This document shows positions 6,384-38,437 of a DNA stretch of 64,000 nt, one piece after another; within the stretch, counting starts at the first letter, position 1, and each line of letters opens with the position of its first letter. Below the pieces are notes generated by a model, which had not been told where the DNA came from, did not search any database, and was given only the letters and a program-made list of their open reading frames with translations. Both the position numbers and the translations under genes were made by a program. The DNA is from a virus: IMG/VR virus record IMGVR_UViG_3300029822_000003, positions 29,172 through 93,171 of that record, one strand, 5' to 3'.

Positions 6384-7691
6384 TTATATATTTTGCTCAT
6401 TATCTTTCTCCTTATTAAATTCCGTTTCATAATGTATATCTTCCATTAAATAATTAAAAGTCTTATTGGGTCCAAACCCAAAGAGCTGGCAAAAATCTTT
6501 TTCTGAACAGTTTAGAAAATCTTTTATACTCATATTGCAAATGCTTCTTCTACATTCTACTAGCTTTTTATAATCTTCTGCACGTCTAGGAGCACTATTA
6601 TTGCCACCTTTTTGTATTTCTTCATGCAATTCATTTAATTTAAGAGTTAGATATTTAAAGAATTTCTTCCTTAATTCCTCGGCTTTTTCTTCCATAATCA
6701 TATCTATCATACAATCTTTTATAGTACGTTCATTTTGCTTTAATGTTGCGGTTACGTTTTCTACAGGGTCAAACATATTTTTTATATTTTTAGCTATACA
6801 TTCTCTTGCTTTTTCAGCATCATCTTTAGAACTACAAGTGACGCTTACATTAATATCTGCCTTACCGCTACTATTTGCCTCAATTTTTGCATTGTTTAAT
6901 TTATTGAACGAATTCTGCATCTCTTGTAATTTTGACCCAATTTCATCTAGTAGTTTTATACCTTTTTCAAAATCAATATTTAGTTTGGCCGTTAATCCTG
7001 CCCCTAACTTTGCATTTTCTATGGGGTCAAATATATCTTTAGCTATAGTTCTTTCGTCAAGCTCTACAGTACCGCTTTCTGTTATATTGCTATGCTGTTT
7101 ACCATCTATGAGTTTAAAACAACTTTCAAATATCTCTTCTGGTAGTACATATATGTCGTTCTTTTCTCTTATTATGTAATCATTTGGATGTACTGGTATT
7201 TTTACATCATTTTCGTCACTGCCTTTAAGTGCTATTTCAGTAACAGTATGTAATATACTAATATTTCTTATTAAACCTTCTCCTAATTTAAGTGCATCGT
7301 CACTATCTCTCAAATCTTCATAGGTTGAAACGTCTATATTTTTTAATGCTGAAACTACATTTCCGTTAGCCTTATTGACGTAGTACTTTATTTTATTTTT
7401 CATAGTATCATTTTCCTCCTCAATTAATTCAAAATATTTATCAAATTCTTTTCTAGGTACTTTATATACACATCTGTATCCTTTTACGAGGTAATCTCCT
7501 TCTAAACAATATATATTTTCTCTTTCTGCTTCAATTACAAAGAGATAAGATTCGTTAAGGTTAAATCCTCTAGTCTCAACACTATGTATCAATCCCGACC
7601 CAAACTTCATTATATCCATTGTTGTATTAACTTTGGCGGTAATTTGCATAGCTTCTACTATAACACCAGTATCTTTATTTCTATATTTCAT
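6384..7691 (-). CDS. Hypothetical protein with two tandem N-terminal phage domains
   Basis: Two copies of KY.NK..G.VV.A...(G/N)DY.V/I...Y......F...F.LI, related to 20150-20401. Confidence 0.55.
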   Translation of the reverse strand: MKYRNKDTGVIVEAMQITAKVNTTMDIMKFGSGLIHSVETRGFNLNESYLFVIEAERENIYCLEGDYLVKGYRCVYKVPRKEFDKYFELIEEENDTMKNKIKYYVNKANGNVVSALKNIDVSTYEDLRDSDDALKLGEGLIRNISILHTVTEIALKGSDENDVKIPVHPNDYIIREKNDIYVLPEEIFESCFKLIDGKQHSNITESGTVELDERTIAKDIFDPIENAKLGAGLTAKLNIDFEKGIKLLDEIGSKLQEMQNSFNKLNNAKIEANSSGKADINVSVTCSSKDDAEKARECIAKNIKNMFDPVENVTATLKQNERTIKDCMIDMIMEEKAEELRKKFFKYLTLKLNELHEEIQKGGNNSAPRRAEDYKKLVECRRSICNMSIKDFLNCSEKDFCQLFGFGPNKTFNYLMEDIHYETEFNKEKDNEQNI

Positions 7692-28409: not shown

Positions 28410-30914
28410 TCATTATTATTAATCATCTATTTCTTTATGCAGCCAATTACTTTTATATCTTCCATTTTCTATACTCCAATTCATAATATCTTTATCTTCT
28501 GATATTTCTATACTTCCACATCTTTGCTCTAACATTTGTGCACATTCATCATGTTCTCTTTCTCTAGCTAAATTACATCCATGTACTTGTGATGAATTAA
28601 AGTTATTAATAAAAGCAATTTTGTCTCTATTGTAATCTATAAGAAATATTCTATCCTCATCCATCAATATAATATCTCTGCAATTAAGGGTGTGTTCTTT
28701 TCCATGTATATCTCTTATTAATATTTGTTCATCATCAAATATTTTTTTCTTCTCTTTTACTTTTACAATTCCAGTGCTAATTAATATTTCCATAAAAGTT
28801 TTATTTCTAATAATATCCTGTCCTACTACATACATATCTATCATACATTATCGCTCCCGTTTTATATTATCTATTTTCTTTTGCAAATCATATTTTTTAA
28901 TCAATTCTTTCCAAGGCATCCCGTCTGCTATATCATTATACATTTTTACCTCTATAAAAGCATTGTCAGCTAATACCGATAGTGCATATTTAATTCTTAA
29001 TTTATATTCTGGACACGTTTCTCTAAAATCAACGCTTTTGCAATTCTTAGCTTGACATTTTCCACCTGGAAACATCCACGGAGTTGAAAAGAATTCGTCA
29101 CAAGTATTACACGTTTTCTCTATTTTAAGTAATTTGTTTGGGTCTTCCATTTACATATCACTCCCAAGAATTTCATTATCAGTTCTTTCATTAAGAGCTT
29201 TAGCCACTATTCTAAAATACTCTTGTACATTTTCTTCTTCCATAATTTCTTCTTTTGTAGGTTTACGCCCTAGACATTTAATTTTTAATGGTATATTCAT
29301 TTATATATCACTCCTTCTTTATAACTTTTCCTATTGTTCCAGGTTTATATTTAATTACATCTATACCGCTATCTGTAGAGTTTTATTGTATAGATTCAAC
29401 GCATTGTCTTTGTTTATGTTCCAGCCTTTACAATCAAATAGTTCTAAGTATTTAGTGAAAGCTTTCTTTGATTTCAGTGTGAATATGCTATTAAATAAAG
29501 GCCATAATCCTTTCCATTCATCAATAAACCCGCAAGCAAATGGAGGATTTATCCAATAAGATTCATACCCTATTAGTTCATACAGATAAAGTACATCATT
29601 ATAGGTTAAATCTTTTCCCCAGTTTTCTTTTATCCATTGTAAAGTATGATGTTCTTCCATGCAATCAACTCCTTAATATTTAGATTTTCTTCTCTTTATT
29701 TCAAACTTTTTAGCTGTCTTATTTAAATATCTTTGTGTTTGAATGTACCTATATATTCTTTTAAATATGTTCAATTATAGTCAGCTCCTATTTATTATTA
29801 AGTACATTATAATATATTCCTACCGCTTTTAATTCTGCTACGTTGTCACATTTTAGTAGTATATTTTTATCTGCACCAATTTTTAATGAAGTTTCAATAG
29901 TTGAAAGTATGTCGTTAGGTGTTAGTTCTCCATCTTTATGCGATATTCTCAATGCTAAAATTTTTAATTCTTCATCTATGGTAATGTTATTCTCTGCTAA
30001 TTTTCTTCCACATTTAGGGCAATACTCAATTTCTCCTGAGGATTCACCGGCATAATAGGAATTTGATGTAAGGTAATACGTTATTATGCCTTTAATATAT
30101 TCTTTTTCTAAGTAAGTTTCAACGTCACAATCATCTATTATTGGCTCTCCTCTTGATGTATCTTCATCTATAATGTCTTTAAAATCGCAGTATTTACACA
30201 TTTAATCAACTCCTATCTATAATTCTTTTAGTCCGCGTTCTCGCCTTACTTTATTTATAGAAGTGCCTTTATATTCTTCTACACTTTCATTAAGCTTATT
30301 GGCTATTTCTAGTTCATCATTATAATTTAAAAGTCTCCACCTTTTTATGCACTTTGATTTTAAATATTCCTTTTTTACGTCTGGACCGATACTAGGATTA
30401 TTTTCTTTAGCTTTCATATACCATTCTAAAGAATCATTCTGTAGTCTAATTATAAGTGCATCTATGCTTTCAACATCTATGGCTATAATCTTACTTTCAC
30501 TATTAAGCAATTCAGCCTTTACTAGCATAATATCAGCTCCTTTTACATCCAACTATTGAATATTAATATAGAATCATCATCTAGTATAACAGGGTTTACA
30601 TCTAAAGCTTTGCTTAATTGAAATATGTCTACAAGATAATCCAATTCTATAGTTCCTACAAATACAATGTTATCTTCATCAATATAATTGAATATTTTGC
30701 CTTTCTTATGGAAATACGTATCTCTTGTCATTGATTCTTCAAAACCGTATTTATTTAACACAGGTCTTATGCTATCAAGTTTTTCTTTAGAATCTGCCAT
30801 GTATATTTCTACTTTCATTCTAATCTCTCCTTTAATCATATTAATATTTTACAAGAATTACAAGTTATCTTTTTCATATTTTTCAAAGAACTTTTTTAGC
30901 TTCGTTTCGGATAT

Positions 30915-30946
30915 TAAAATAAGGTAAGCACATTGCCTACCTTATT
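30915..30946 (-). terminator. Intrinsic terminator closing the ncRNA operon
   Basis: AATAAGGTAGGCA-ATG-TGCTTACCTTATT-TT. Confidence 0.65.
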
Positions 30947-31085
30947 AGGGGTTATCTATTGGGGGATGGGATATTTACAACCCTATCTGAGTTGTTGGCG
31001 GCCATATTTATCGGCTACAGCCAAACCATAAAAAATCAATAGAAAGGAGTTAAAAATATGAAATCTCAATCATTTATCTGTCTAG

Positions 31086-31173
31086 TGGTGGATAGAGTAG
31101 GACTTGAACCTACAGTGTTTTTTATGTAAGTGATTTACAGTCACCCTTCTTCAGCCAATTTGAATATCTATCC
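31086..31173 (-). tRNA. tRNA-Tyr (GTA) with encoded CCA
   Basis: Acceptor GGATAGA/TCTATCC-A-CCA; anticodon arm GGTGA-CTGTAAA-TCACT; long variable region; T arm GTAGG-TTCAAGT-CCTAC. Confidence 0.85.
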
Positions 31174-31714
31174 ATATAGTGGGGAATCGAACCCCAAAAA
31201 GAAATTGGTTACAAGCTTAAAACAAACCCTTGTTTTTGCTTATCTGGGGCGGTAAAGGATAGCCTTAATTATCGCTTATCTCCTACAAACATATCCTGAT
31301 TATGTTATATAGTTCTTATACGATTCCTTTATCCTTATTTTGTTTATATATTCAATTTAGCTTATCAGGTCACTAAATATCTTATATAAGTTTATCTTTT
31401 CATCTATGCCTAAAGACCGCTGGGACTAGATTTATTTTAATTCCCTCTAGTTACAGGAATTGTTAAGTCTCATGGTGGCGGTTGCATTTTTATTTTACGT
31501 GTCCTGCAACCACAGGCACAGCTTTTGAAATCATCTTATCTTTCGTCCTTTTGAATTATTGCACGCATTTGTGCTACGACTTTTACTTCTTCTATTACAT
31601 CGTCTAAAAGTCTAATTGGTGCTTTGTGTTCTGCAAGTATATCGCATATTTCTTCTGCTATTTCAGTAGTATCTATTGCATTCATTGTTTCTCACCTCAA
31701 ACTATTCTTTGTCT

Positions 31715-31948
31715 TTAGTGTTTCTGATAAAATATTTTTATGTTGTTGCATTGTATGCTTACTATTATGTGGCCTTTTCTGTCAACTAAGTTGTACATAA
31801 AAGGTACACCACTTTGTGATGTAAAAGGTATGATGAATCTTATTTCTTTGTCTTGGAAAGTATCCCCTACTGTGTATTCTTTTGCATCATCACATACTAT
31901 TTTTCTTATGTATCTTAATACTTCGGTACTATCTTCCATAGTTTTCAT
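31715..31948 (-). CDS. Hypothetical protein inside the ncRNA operon
   Basis: ORF with GGAGG RBS; two more short RBS-led ORFs flank it. Confidence 0.55.
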   Translation of the reverse strand: MKTMEDSTEVLRYIRKIVCDDAKEYTVGDTFQDKEIRFIIPFTSQSGVPFMYNLVDRKGHIIVSIQCNNIKIFYQKH

Positions 31949-32229
31949 TTTATACCTCCACTTTTTATCATATGTATTAGAGATTTAAACTGTTGATCTC
32001 ACTTATATAGTTATTTCTTCTTCATTTATTATTTCACCAGTAGTTAATTCAAGCTTAAAGTCGACGATTTTTTCACTAGTTTCTTTTAATTCATCAACTA
32101 ATGAATTAAATTTTTTTAGCAATAGTTCCAATTCAGCAGAGTTAGATTTTGTTATTATTCTTTTTATTTTAATCACCCCCTGTAACTTGTTTTTTTATCT
32201 TTAGTTTGTATTTATCTTTGCTTATGTAT

Positions 32230-32359
32230 TAGAGTGGGTGAAGATTTGCACTTCACATGTTACAACCAACACCATATATGCTACCTTGCCGCATAATTGC
32301 AAGTTCCCCACTTTCAACACGAGTTGTAGAAGCTGTTGGAAAGTGTAATTGCCCGCTCC
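32230..32359 (-). ncRNA. Enlarged tRNA-like RNA (about 130 nt)
   Basis: Acceptor-like GGAGCGG/CCACTCT stacked on T-like arm GTGAAG-TGCAAAT-CTTCAC; three internal stems. Confidence 0.55.
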
Positions 32360-32919
32360 TGGTATGCAATTACTTTAGTGTGCAACTGCATAAATCTCAC
32401 TTTACTCGTTGAAATATAATAATTGACTATATATAAAAATAAAGGGTGGTATAAGATTGCTTTTATAGTGTGCAACCTTAGTAAGTATCACTTCCAAAAT
32501 CACATTTCAGGAGGAACTGAAAATCAATCTTGATATTAATGCTGGTTGTATGCAGTTTCTTTTTTAGTGTGAAGCTGTAATAAATATCACTGTGAACAAA
32601 TTCAAATAAAAAATCAATAAAAGGAGTATGTTATAACGTGAACAACGCTAAAAGCTGTATGCCTTTCGGCTGGTGACCAGCTATTATTTATAGTGCTCCT
32701 GGTCAGTAACACTCATTAAGATTATAGGAGACTTTATACAAGTTTGAAATTTGCATTGTTATTGCTTTTATTAAGGCAATTTGCCTTTGGTGACCGTATT
32801 TATAGGCTACGGTCAAACCCTTTCTAAATTGGAAGATTAGAAAACGAACAAAATTAAAATCTACACAGTATCCCTGCTGTGATTACCACCAAAAATTAAT
32901 TATCTTATCTACAATTATT

Positions 32920-32948
32920 ATTGTACTCGATATTGATGAGTTATGCAA
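32920..32948 (-). promoter_or_regulatory. Sigma-A promoter of ncRNA operon with operator-like boxes
   Basis: TTGCAT-17-TACAAT; ATATCGAG boxes at 32925-32933 and 32952-32960. Confidence 0.7.
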
Positions 32949-33158
32949 TAGATATCGAGCAAAAATAAAATATTAGTACAAGCTTTTTTATTTTTTAAAA
33001 TATTACTTGAATCCAGTTTTATTTATTGTTCGTGTTTTTAGACTTTTGCAGAGTGAAATTTTGTATTAGCATATACGGTAAAATCCATTTCACTCGAAAA
33101 TATACGAACATTATTACATTATTTTGATTTATTGTTTATGTTTTACTGTATATTTTGA

Positions 33159-33186
33159 ACTTCGCTAAAACATTATTTAGCGAACT
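33159..33186. other. 11-6-11 recombinase-type site abutting terL stop
   Basis: ACTTCGCTAAA-ACATTA-TTTAGCGAACT. Confidence 0.5.
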
Positions 33187-34727
33187 TAGTCTGGGATTGT
33201 GATGCTAATATTATTTGGTTTTCTAAACCTTTCACAGCCATAACGCAAACTGTCGCACGCATCATCATTGACCTTAACCGGTTTTGGCAGTCTTTCCCCT
33301 GTCTTCTTATCTTTCTCCCATTGATAGGATTCTAACTCATTCTTTAGTCCAATACAGCTTTTATCTACATACATACCACGCTCTTGTATCCATTCTATCC
33401 CTTCCATTACACTATTAGTTCCCTTAGTGCAAGCCCTAATTCCATTAATTCCTTGTCTTTTCATTTCTTCTATTGCTTCAGGTCTTGCATTGTCTGCGTA
33501 TATTTTTATGTCATTGTAAGCTGGGCCTATAGAATTTTGTATCTCCCTTTCTATGTACTTCCAGTTTATATCCCGCTCATATACTTTTTCTCTCTGAAAT
33601 ATTTCTAGGTTACATGCTTTTGCGTATTTTTTTTTAACCAAATAAAATAGTTGCATACTTTTTGATATATCTGAACCACTATCTATATATTTTTTTAACT
33701 TCTCAATTTCTTCTTTTACCCAAGGAAATATCTTTTTTAACTCATTTGCTATATCTATGGCTGTGAGCTTAGGCTTATACAATTCTTTTAGAATATATAA
33801 ATCATCATCCTTTATGCCTATCTGATGGAATGCTGTATGATGTTCCCATCCAAAATCCAATCCATAGGAAATATCGTCATACCAAGATAAATCTTTGTTG
33901 CAGTCTATTACTTCCCAATTTTCATATATAAGTTCACCAAGTACGCCCCAGTTTCCGTTGCACTGTACACCATATTTTCTAGGGTTGCGGAGTTTCATTT
34001 TATTTCTAAGTTTTTCATCTTTATACTGGCCATTATAATATTTGTTGTCTCTCCAAGTGGTTTTTAATATAAACGTGTTCTCTGGTTCCAATACATTATC
34101 TTTCCATATTTCCTCACTCATATCTATTCCATTTTGAAAGAAGTATGTACGAATCCAATGCGTTTTAAATATAGGGTTAAACATCATAAATACTTTTAAT
34201 TCCTTACCCCAGGCATGGTTGCCTGGCGGTGTGCCCCTTAATCTATCTTGTATATCTTCCAAGTCTTCTTGTGTAAAGTCTGTTACTTCTTCTAGTACAA
34301 GTACATTTACATTATCAATACCCTTCAGCTTTTCTGGATTATCATATCCGGTCATTCTTATAATAGAGCCACTAGCAAATTTAATATGTTTTAGAGTTCT
34401 GTTATAAGTAAAGTCTCTGCCCTCTACAAGACCATGGCTTGAATGAATATTTTTAAAATACTTTGTCATTATATTTAATATAGGAATTTCAACTGTGTTT
34501 TTTAATGTGGTTGCATACTTTCTAGCTATGAGAATATCAAAAGTAGAATGGCATACACACATTTCAATTAGTTTGGACCATATGCTGAATGACTTACTGG
34601 AACCTGTGCCCCCATAGAATATATTATATTTCTTAGGGATGTACCCAGGTTCAAACATAAATCTATATTTTTCGTTTACATAAGGCCGCCGCAGCCTAAT
34701 CTTCTTTTTTATCTTCATCAGTACCAC
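33186..34727 (-). CDS. terL: Terminase large subunit, PBSX family
   Basis: YGGTGSSKS Walker A, LVLEE Walker B, FNP, GLDFGW, DNARPE, DDACDSLRY. Confidence 0.93.
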   Translation of the reverse strand: MVLMKIKKKIRLRRPYVNEKYRFMFEPGYIPKKYNIFYGGTGSSKSFSIWSKLIEMCVCHSTFDILIARKYATTLKNTVEIPILNIMTKYFKNIHSSHGLVEGRDFTYNRTLKHIKFASGSIIRMTGYDNPEKLKGIDNVNVLVLEEVTDFTQEDLEDIQDRLRGTPPGNHAWGKELKVFMMFNPIFKTHWIRTYFFQNGIDMSEEIWKDNVLEPENTFILKTTWRDNKYYNGQYKDEKLRNKMKLRNPRKYGVQCNGNWGVLGELIYENWEVIDCNKDLSWYDDISYGLDFGWEHHTAFHQIGIKDDDLYILKELYKPKLTAIDIANELKKIFPWVKEEIEKLKKYIDSGSDISKSMQLFYLVKKKYAKACNLEIFQREKVYERDINWKYIEREIQNSIGPAYNDIKIYADNARPEAIEEMKRQGINGIRACTKGTNSVMEGIEWIQERGMYVDKSCIGLKNELESYQWEKDKKTGERLPKPVKVNDDACDSLRYGCERFRKPNNISITIPD

Positions 34728-35613
34728 CTTCTACAGCATATTCAATGTCATCGTCCAAGGTATCTGCACTCTTTTCTGCAAGTTCCATCTTCCTACGTTC
34801 AATATCAAGTTTAGCTTGTGTAGGCTTATCCAGTAGCCCTTGATATTTAGCTAAGAATTCTAGTGCGAACTTCTTATCCATAAGCTTTAATTTAATACCA
34901 TCTTTTCCCTCGCTTACTTCTGTGACAAGTGTCCCATCCACTTTAGATGAATCATTTAGTATTACATAGTTATCAATGTAATACCTTGGATTGCCGTCTT
35001 GGTCGAGTTTTTGTTCACCTGTTTTCTTATCTATTACCGGAATCTTCTTATGTCCATACTCCATGAAGTCGTTCATATCACTTAATGCTATATCTATATA
35101 CTTTTGCAAAAGGTCTTGTATAGATAACATAGCTCCTTTGAATTTATCAGCCTTTAAACGCTGTATTTCCGCTCTAATTCTATCATTGCCTATCAGTCTT
35201 GGTCCGTTGGCTGTCGCTGACATATAATCACATCCATAGGCTTTCTGGTATGCCTTTGTTGCATTAAAGCATTTTATATAATACATGCAGAATAATTTCT
35301 GTTTATCATTTAACTCTTTATTTTCAAGAACTTTTTCTACTGCTTTATCTATAACTTTATTCTCAATTTTTCCTTCTTCTTTTTCCTGTGCAACCTCTTT
35401 GTTTTGTTTCGCAACCGCTTTTTTCTGTTTCTTTGTACTGGTTGCAACCTTAAACCATTTATTTCCGTTATCTTTATCTCTTTTAGCCCAGCTTTTTATA
35501 GTCCCTAGTTTTACATTGTATTTATCCGCTAGTTCCTTGAAGCTTCCCTCTCCATGTTCATAAGCTGATCTTATTTGCTCTTTTATGTCTTCCATCCTTT
35601 TCACCTCTTGCAA
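34696..35613 (-). CDS. terS: Terminase small subunit with N-terminal HTH
   Basis: LNDKQKLFC..Y...FNATKAY.KAY; N-terminal LADKYNV..GTIKSW.KR. Confidence 0.88.
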   Translation of the reverse strand: MQEVKRMEDIKEQIRSAYEHGEGSFKELADKYNVKLGTIKSWAKRDKDNGNKWFKVATSTKKQKKAVAKQNKEVAQEKEEGKIENKVIDKAVEKVLENKELNDKQKLFCMYYIKCFNATKAYQKAYGCDYMSATANGPRLIGNDRIRAEIQRLKADKFKGAMLSIQDLLQKYIDIALSDMNDFMEYGHKKIPVIDKKTGEQKLDQDGNPRYYIDNYVILNDSSKVDGTLVTEVSEGKDGIKLKLMDKKFALEFLAKYQGLLDKPTQAKLDIERRKMELAEKSADTLDDDIEYAVEGGTDEDKKED

Positions 35614-37576: not shown

Positions 37577-37639
37577 ATTGTCCTCCTTTTACGGTTTTCT
37601 GGATTACCGTGAACCATATTTTTAATAAAAAGTTATTTT

Positions 37640-38389: not shown

Positions 38390-38437
38390 AATAGCCTCCT
38401 TAAATACGGTTTTTATGGCTGACCGCAAACCATATTT

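Follow-up and report, generated by a model that had tools for sequence, protein, structure and literature searches.

In the tRNA-like structure (TLS) of tymoviruses such as turnip yellow mosaic virus (TYMV), an H-type pseudoknot supplies the acceptor helix, and the 3' strand of this knot leads into a discriminator base and CCA. We find the same arrangement in a series of small RNA elements, here called pseudoknot-CCA units, on the minus strand of an uncultured phage. The stretch analysed (the window) comprises 64,000 nucleotides (nt), positions 29,172 to 93,171 of IMGVR_UViG_3300029822_000003, a 93-kb IMG/VR virus record (G+C 30.5%), and the units lie directly downstream of terS (34696-35613) and terL (33186-34727). 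The TYMV TLS is a full L-shape with analogues of the T, D and anticodon arms, sits at the extreme 3' terminus of the genome of a plus-strand RNA virus of plants and becomes aminoacylated, whereas the phage units consist of two stems in 33-48 nt, with a stem 1 (S1) of 4-7 base pairs (bp), a long stem 2 (S2) of 6-10 bp and an A-rich loop 3, and occur in many copies inside the transcript of a DNA phage. The Rfam TLS models gave no match to the units at E up to 10, and neither ARAGORN nor Rfam (RF00005) found a tRNA cloverleaf on them, the only call being a tRNA-Tyr in the same region. Structures of the TYMV type are RNase P substrates in vitro (PMC12710915).

RNase P also acts on synthetic pseudoknots. 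Bacterial RNase P RNAs of both type A and type B cut an engineered H-type pseudoknot within its loop 1, on condition that RCCA follows, with a preference for U at position -1, and the same work names cleavage of pseudoknots by RNase P in vivo as an open question (Kosek et al. 2025, PMC12710915). Those substrates (a biotin aptamer with RCCA) resemble the phage units in having U(-1) and RCCA; they differ in being engineered, and their cleavage is slow. Type III antitoxins (ToxI, CptI, AntiQ) are likewise small pseudoknot RNAs in series that are cut from one transcript, but they are near-identical tandem repeats beside a toxin gene, while the phage units are varied, spaced by cargo, CCA-ended and without a toxin neighbour. 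The species 1 and 2 RNAs of phage T4 (rnaC, rnaD) and other tRNA-like RNAs in the tRNA clusters of phages, small stable RNAs of 120-290 nt with no assigned function, are co-transcribed and matured with the phage tRNAs. They keep a tRNA body or large folds, unlike the present knots of 33-48 nt, which are repeated about eight times with cargo between them. In the TMERs of Murid herpesvirus 68 and in MALAT1/mascRNA, a tRNA-like element stands beside hairpins or at the end of another RNA, and tRNA-processing enzymes release the neighbours. The TMERs are a viral array of several tRNA-like units; both they and mascRNA are eukaryotic and cloverleaf-like throughout, with CCA added after cleavage, whereas the phage units are minimal pseudoknots with an encoded CCA in a bacteriophage. 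The context of mascRNA is also described in PMC8457004. The phage element belongs to no described family and is, in our view, a variation on the known idea of viral TLSs.

Comparison within the window and with related phages confirmed that the units are real, strand-specific, conserved H-type pseudoknots in which stem 2 is followed by N-CCA (Table 1). The seven units spelled out in a first-pass annotation of the window were all found on the minus strand at the positions it gave, but its total of about 11 was too high; the realistic count is 7 to 8, that is, seven strong units and one decayed. Among its weaker candidates, the one at 32543 stands as a decayed long-type copy, homologous to an intact unit in the related contig L002 (5097-5129), whereas 31206, 31245 and 30960 found no support: the first is part of another conserved hairpin whose CCA is absent in contig L008, and neither of the other two has a convincing pseudoknot. 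The units fall into three types. The short type (units 1 and 8) follows NGGT-NN-S2a(7)-GCCN-A-rich(3-5)-S2b(7)-N-CCA. The medium type (units 2, 5 and 6) has a stem 1 of 6-7 bp and a loop 3 of 8-13 nt, and the long type (units 3, 4 and the decayed copy) is marked by a stem 1 of AGTG/CACT, a stem 2 of 9-10 bp and a loop 1 of 6-8 nt.

Such hairpin-CCA combinations are far more frequent in the array than chance would give. A strict rule for stem 2 (a minimum of 6 bp, of which three or more are G-C and no more than two G-U, enclosing a loop of 3-22 nt and separated by 1-2 nt from a CCA) is matched seven times in the 2-kb region, corresponding to six units because the one ending in CCACCA counts twice. 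Over 1000 dinucleotide shuffles of the region, a control akin to the one proposed in the first-pass annotation, the mean was 0.12 and the maximum 2; elsewhere in the 93-kb genome, 184 kb with both strands counted, there are about 8 matches. Stem 1 was scored separately. The seven window units score 29 against 18.8 ± 3.0 when the upstream sequence is shuffled, a value reached in 3 of 2000 shuffles, and 17 diverse units from several phages score 74.5 against 47.7 ± 4.8, which none of 2000 shuffles attained. Swapping upstream sequences between units had the same outcome as shuffling them.

The pairing is also kept where the bases are not. Covariation was read from sequence-based alignments of twelve short units, eight long units and the orthologs of unit 5; the relatives, designated by L numbers, were recovered by TerL-based searches of viral and metagenome contigs. 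In the twelve short units 99% of the cells are paired, with double changes at 6 of the 7 stem 2 pairs, and stem 1 is 100% paired with one covarying pair. Among the eight long units, 7 of the 9 pairs in stem 2 show double changes, and the stem 1 AGTG/CACT is replaced by AGAG/CTCT in L004. When the partner columns are shifted by 1-3 positions the pairing collapses in all cases. Individual orthologs give the same picture. Unit 1 differs from its L002 ortholog by three compensatory changes of stem 2 pairs between almost identical flanks; unit 2 has orthologs in L002, L017 and L025 with altered bases and both stems intact; unit 5, compared with its L008 counterpart, shows compensatory change at two stem 1 pairs and three stem 2 pairs; unit 6 reads TATTCTT/GAGAATA and CTGGA/TCCAG in L002 and ATACCT/GGGTAT and GTTGCA/TGCAAC in L008; and the orthologs of unit 8 in both of these contigs covary. 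Compensatory changes in homologous arrays therefore support both helices, as expected from the earlier remark that the stems vary but keep their pairing. The same remark held that G-U wobbles favour the minus strand, and this too is borne out: S1 column 6-17 is a conserved U-G pair in 11 of the 12 short units, and as the opposite strand would have a C-A mismatch in place of each conserved U-G pair, the RNA must be read from the minus strand. A reading at the DNA level, as pac/cos or recombination sites, was rejected because the conserved G-U pairs make the structure strand-specific.

The dimensions of the units are those of pseudoknots. The length of loop 3 rises with that of stem 1 (rho 0.74, n = 24), and A makes up 76% of this loop, compared with 39% of the region; loop 1 measures 6-9 nt where stem 2 has 8-10 bp and 1-3 nt where it has 5-7 bp; and the two stems together amount to 11-14 bp. 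Loop lengths thus fit pseudoknot geometry. A similar scaffold lacking the CCA lies 4-5 nt upstream of the Shine-Dalgarno sequence of two consecutive phage genes on the minus strand (window 38406-38433 and 37591-37617). The first copy (TATGGTTT-GCGGT-c-AGCCAT-aaaa-ACCGT) clearly forms a pseudoknot, its stem 1 having 6 bp, and the second has only a weak stem 1 of 3 bp. The location of these scaffolds before two ribosome-binding sites suggests a general RNA-stability module, and they may serve as 5'-end stabilisers or translational elements.

Table 1. Features of the pseudoknot-CCA array and its operon. Positions are those of the window; lower case marks loops and linkers. S1, stem 1; S2, stem 2; CM, covariance model.
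Feature	Position	Strand	Remarks
Promoter-like site, TTGCAT-17 nt-TACAAT	32920-32948	minus	Upstream of array; read from sequence
Unit 1, short type, GGGT-tt-GACCGTA-GCCT-ataaa-TACGGTC-a-CCA	32788-32820	minus	CM R1, 53.4 bits
Hairpin AAGGCA-aat-TGCCTT	32773-32787	minus	First base past CCA of unit 1; L002 ortholog AGGGCA...TGCCCT
Unit 2, medium type, AGTGTT-act-GACCAG-g-AGCACT-ataaataatag-CTGGTC-a-CCA	32671-32713	minus	Followed by hairpin GCC-GAAA-GGC (32661-32670)
Decayed long-type unit, S1 AGTG/CACT	32543-32591	minus	Two A-C mismatches in S2, 5 nt before CCA; alignment A3
Small hairpin TTCAG-ttcctc-CTGAA	32506-32521	minus	CCUCC motif in loop; kept in L002
Unit 3, long type, AGTG-atacttac-TAAGGTTGC-a-CACT-ataaaa-GCAATCTTA-ta-CCA	32447-32492	minus	Sequence and alignment
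Unit 4, long type, AGTG-agattt-ATGCAGTTGC-a-CACT-aaa-GTAATTGCAT-a-CCA	32360-32401	minus	Sequence and alignment
tRNA-like RNA with T-arm-like hairpin GTGAAG-tgcaaat-CTTCAC	32230-32359	minus	No encoded CCA; not a pseudoknot-CCA unit
Three small open reading frames (57, 77 and 49 aa)	31536-32176	minus	At 32003-32176, 31715-31948 and 31536-31685
Unit 5, medium type, TGTGCCT-gt-GGTTGCA-GGACACG-taaaataaaaa-TGCAACC-g-CCA-CCA	31473-31520	minus	Sequence and L008 comparison
Unit 6, medium type, AATTCCT-gta-ACTAGA-GGGAATT-aaaataaa-TCTAGT-c-CCA	31421-31461	minus	Sequence and ortholog comparison
tRNA-Tyr(GTA), encoded CCA	31086-31173	minus	ARAGORN; Rfam RF00005, 55.2 bits
Unit 8, short type, TGGT-tt-GGCTGTA-GCCG-ataaa-TATGGCC-g-CCA	30996-31028	minus	CAU...CUCCUUUC before it; CM R1, 48.1 bits
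Hairpin ACAAC...GTTGT, then C-rich run UCCCAUCCCCC	30961-30995	minus	Right after CCA of unit 8; layout shared by L002 and L008
Terminator-like hairpin with T-run	30915-30946	minus	Closes operon; read from sequence

The sequence between the units has features of its own. Of 26 distinct units, 10 have a hairpin whose first base adjoins the CCA, compared with 1.1 expected and with none of 2000 shuffles giving as many; these hairpins are small and G+C-rich, and between orthologs their sequence varies while the pairing is kept. The inter-unit spacers of the window, L002 and L008 carry a C-rich motif (CUCC, CCUCC or UCCCC) in 19 of 21 cases, where shuffled sequence yields 5.8 ± 1.9 and the other strand 7, and the two spacers without it are the leaders that precede unit 1. 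The motif can sit in a hairpin loop: the small hairpin upstream of unit 3 has an L008 counterpart, GTTC-ctcct-GAAC, in which the stem bases are changed and the loop motif is not. Downstream of the last unit, the layout of hairpin and C-rich run ends in the terminator instead of a pseudoknot-CCA. Small RNAs of Firmicutes with C-rich seeds (RsaE/RoxS-like) come to mind, as the spacers carry a C-rich motif, one of them in a hairpin loop, although the motif was chosen post hoc. RsaE/RoxS-like RNAs each have a promoter and an intrinsic terminator of their own, whereas here there is one of each for the whole array, and no Rfam small-RNA family matched. Given its post hoc choice and a stricter 5-mer test that showed no significance, the C-rich spacer motif serves as a lead, not as proof.

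From promoter to terminator, the region looks like a single minus-strand operon of ~2 kb that holds several small RNAs, a tRNA-like RNA, three small open reading frames (ORFs) and tRNA-Tyr. The first-pass annotation had let the units share one promoter and one terminator with the tRNA; both are present at positions conserved in L002 and L008, but a scan for consensus promoters and terminators listed neither. The promoter was missed because its -35 hexamer agrees with TTGACA at only 3 of 6 positions. Its hexamers recur at the matching place in L002, and L008 has the consensus TTGACA/TATAAT there; the T-runs of the terminator are clearer in both contigs. An inverted repeat, CTCGATAT...ATATCGAG, flanks the -35 hexamer (window 32915-32960, minus strand), is similar in L002 and may be an operator.

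Two of the small ORFs have clear ribosome-binding sites. None of the three products reaches the cut-off of a Pfam family or matches a PHROG; the 77-aa ORF is an orphan, and the 49-aa ORF is 82% identical in L037 and has a homolog at the matching place in L002. In both the window and L002, unit 5 comes straight after the last small ORF's stop codon. The tRNA-like RNA begins at the first base past the CCA of unit 4, in line with the earlier observation that some units adjoin the next RNA directly. It is closed by the stem GGAGCGG/CCACTCT with one mismatch, its T-arm-like helix covaries (GTGGGG/CCTCAC in L002, GTGAGG/CCTCAC in L008), and its counterpart in L002 is a stretch of ~1 kb; ARAGORN and Rfam made no call on it. 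Just before tRNA-Tyr (window 31181-31243, minus strand) there is a conserved hairpin, AAGC-aaaaacaagggtttgtttt-AGCTT, followed by an isolated T-arm-like GGGGTTCGATTCCCC; both are retained in L008, and neither is called as a tRNA. An element CAU-N6-8-CUCCUUUC precedes the last unit in three phages (window 31040-31065, minus strand; L002 6530-6552; L008 9460-9485). Its opposite strand reads as a strong ribosome-binding site, GAAAGGAG, with an ATG, which opens short, non-conserved ORFs antisense to the tRNA-Tyr region.

How far do the units resemble tRNA precursors? In the short type the U before stem 2 is invariant (T8 in alignment A2), G occupies position +1 and A or G, mostly A, the discriminator position in 11 of 12 units each, and every unit has the CCA. 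Short units thus combine the H-type knot, the U(-1) in loop 1 and the RCCA of RNase P pseudoknot substrates (PMC12710915); long units fit less well, with a linker of 2-3 nt and A or T at +1. In a Clostridium genome with a related prophage terminase all tRNA genes examined encode CCA, as do the phage units and tRNA-Tyr. The stems of the units contain less G+C than genuine acceptor stems encoded in a Clostridium genome, and against 25-26 distinct tRNA genes of Clostridium rectalis the only likeness was a weak one of the short-type stem 2 to tRNA-Phe (GGCTGGA/TCCAGCC-A). Imitation of specific tRNAs was rejected on this ground and because the stems change quickly between close relatives; with TerL 94% identical, such change makes imitation of one particular tRNA unlikely. 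The CCACCA end of unit 5 (window 31473-31478, minus strand), next to a stem 2 starting with GG, is a single CCA in L002 and so is not conserved. On unstable tRNAs, CCACCA together with a stem that begins with GG is the mark placed by the CCA-adding enzyme. A phage-encoded CCA-adding enzyme, RtcB or RNA ligase was searched for and none was detected, so that host enzymes would have to act.

Arrays after terL were found in three separate contigs, where they closely resemble one another (L002/L019, L017/L037 and L024; TerL 92-94% identical where present), in L025, L026 and L022 (TerL 89-91%) and in L008/L018/L023 (71%), mostly from fermentation metagenomes. L002 and L008 carry about 8 units each, close to the number in the window, and L026 carries 2. 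More distant relatives (L004, L005 and L027; TerL 58%) have a single long-type unit upstream of terL, in L003 (70%) small ORFs occupy the slot instead of an array, and the TerL relatives at 58-72% identity other than L008/L023 showed no array. TerL is at most 32% identical to that of any cultured phage. By DNA similarity, the only match in a cultured-phage collection was to tRNA-Tyr of Fusobacterium phages, whose tRNA region (L016) lacks units. Among the loci compared, the covariance model of the short type (R1) matched array units only, and it gave no hit in Clostridium rectalis and 149 Clostridiaceae genomes among the part of the candidates that was scored. Pattern scans of IMG/VR returned only this clade (for the 14-base scan, among the matches listed); matches in L020 and L166 were rejected as GC-rich chance matches.

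Rfam, searched at gathering thresholds and at E up to 10 in the window and its relatives, reported tRNA-Tyr, a borderline abiF RNA and a HEARO RNA only and assigned no known family to the units. No paper describing them was found either, in agreement with the first-pass annotation, which had recognised no such phage element. The abiF-motif RNA (RF03085) lies in the arrays of three relatives, L002 (5167-5203), L024 (4571-4607) and L008 (8421-8457), where it scores 37.2, 36.0 and 34.7 bits, the cut-off being 37. The window lacks this RNA, which could be an antitoxin-like RNA carried by the phage. A HEARO (IscB-associated omega) RNA of 100 bits lies in L026 between terL and the first unit (6625-6845) and indicates an IscB-type mobile element inserted in the slot. 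In this phage clade the slot after terL is a fast-changing RNA cargo island.

We favour, tentatively and with a confidence a little short of even, the reading that the pseudoknot-CCA modules are tRNA-like processing and 3'-protection signals of a polycistronic small-RNA operon; the sequences show the fold, the CCA, the layout of the operon with its hairpins and C-rich motifs, and their conservation, while each processing step, the enzymes and the targets are what we infer. Segments of the transcript are closed by a minimal H-type pseudoknot in which stem 2 is stacked on stem 1, the A-rich loop 3 runs along stem 1 and the 3' strand of stem 2 continues into a discriminator-like base and CCA in the fashion of an acceptor end. 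The host machinery for tRNA-end maturation would read these modules, be it through cleavage by RNase P, a cut of the RNase Z kind or exonucleases halting at the CCA, and would dice the long transcript into discrete pieces. The knot would shield the 3' end of each piece and the hairpin after the CCA the 5' end of the following one, the module thereby taking the role that an intrinsic terminator has in ordinary small RNAs. The pieces, of ~50-130 nt with a C-rich CUCC/CCUCC motif, would have the appearance of small RNAs that bind Shine-Dalgarno sequences, and unit 5 would cap a small mRNA of the three ORFs. Of the functions listed in the first-pass annotation, stabilisation of upstream small RNAs agrees best with the C-rich spacers, the post-CCA hairpins and the terminal segment that a terminator closes.

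Several points weigh against this proposal. Only ~40% of the units are followed by a hairpin, the C-rich motif was defined after inspection of the data, and enrichment of the exact anti-Shine-Dalgarno 5-mer is not significant. In the short type, the invariant GG is able to pair with the CC of the tail as well as with that of the loop, and the CCA could then be sequestered in an extended hairpin instead of being free; the medium and long types offer no alternative pairing partner for the CCA. Moreover, an RNase P cut in loop 1 would free the 5' strand of stem 1 and destroy the knot, which leaves the cut after the CCA without an enzyme. Well-studied RNase Z enzymes are inhibited by an encoded CCA. 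A more specific version, possible but on balance doubtful, is that the phage produces a battery of small RNAs, regulatory or decoy, from one transcript and uses the minimal pseudoknot-N-CCA tRNA mimic as a portable host cut signal and 3' cap, with titration of acceptor-end factors also possible.

The units may themselves be the product. As acceptor-end decoys or sponges, released minihelices would soak up defence toxins that extend or pyrophosphorylate the CCA of tRNAs (toxSAS/CapRel, MenT/AbiEii) or else RNase P, the CCA-adding enzyme or synthetases, which we consider unlikely. The stacked helix of 11-14 bp with N-CCA does resemble the 12-bp acceptor/T arm, and FaRel2 and MenT toxins are reported to read acceptor stems. 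Discriminators A, G, C and T and many different stems occur within one phage, array content varies strongly among close relatives (8 units, 2 units or none), as is usual for loci of accessory or counter-defence function, and relatives have the borderline abiF-motif RNA in the operon. However, stems that change in a compensatory manner between phages with 94% identical TerL make imitation of specific tRNAs improbable, the near match to tRNA-Phe is the sole one and counts for little, and the C-rich spacers and post-CCA hairpins are left without explanation. Small pseudoknots with A-rich stretches, together with the abiF-motif RNA in the arrays of relatives, would also suit mimics of type III (ToxI/CptI-like) antitoxins that neutralise a host endoribonuclease toxin, as the first-pass annotation had suggested. 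Yet neither TRF nor a repeat finder detected near-identical tandem repeats of ~34-40 nt, only three paralogous 15-nt cores; the ORFs in or beside the operon have no ToxN/AbiQ/CptN-like match in Pfam or PHROG; and the units differ in sequence and all end in a CCA that known type III antitoxins do not need. The suggestion fails on these counts, and we regard it as extremely improbable.

A different possibility, to which we give little weight, is that the units are protein- or ligand-binding pseudoknots, either sites for an RNA-binding protein of phage or host or small riboswitch-like aptamers, with the CCA as a recognition motif or part of a switch. An H-type knot with an A-rich loop 3 in the groove of stem 1 is common to preQ1-I aptamers and the T4 gene 32 operator. 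The similar scaffold before two ribosome-binding sites, the ability of the short-type GG to pair with either the loop or the tail CC and the linker ACCA between two helices wherever a hairpin follows would agree with such a role. Against it, no Rfam riboswitch matched even at E up to 10 (this includes the preQ1-I model, so that the H-type fold with A-rich loop 3 is a resemblance only), stems and loops differ too much between units for a single ligand pocket, the CCA of the medium and long types has no other partner to switch to, and no candidate binding protein was found. Smaller still is the chance that the units are degenerate tRNA remains, acceptor stems that internal deletions left behind, or structured but neutral and functionless spacers within a tRNA operon. 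Their operon is shared with tRNA-Tyr, the tRNA-like RNA and a stray T-arm-like hairpin, the short-type stem 2 comes near the acceptor stem of Clostridium tRNA-Phe, and one unit has decayed. But both stems are kept by compensatory change down to 58-71% TerL identity, the CCA is present in every unit, loop lengths follow pseudoknot geometry, and stem 1 pairs 5' of the would-be acceptor stem, which a remnant would not need.

If the modules do act as processing and 3'-protection signals, they would provide the first case of a natural pseudoknot on which bacterial tRNA-processing enzymes act and a bacterial counterpart of tRNA-punctuated RNA arrays, and they would provide natural test substrates for the question whether RNase P and tRNA-end enzymes act on pseudoknots in vivo (PMC12710915). 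Being compact and flexible in sequence, the element would also serve in Gram-positive hosts as a part that frees several small RNAs from a single transcript. For the phages themselves, it would mean that bacterial viruses reduce tRNA mimicry to a two-stem knot and employ it as a modular tag for RNA processing and stability.

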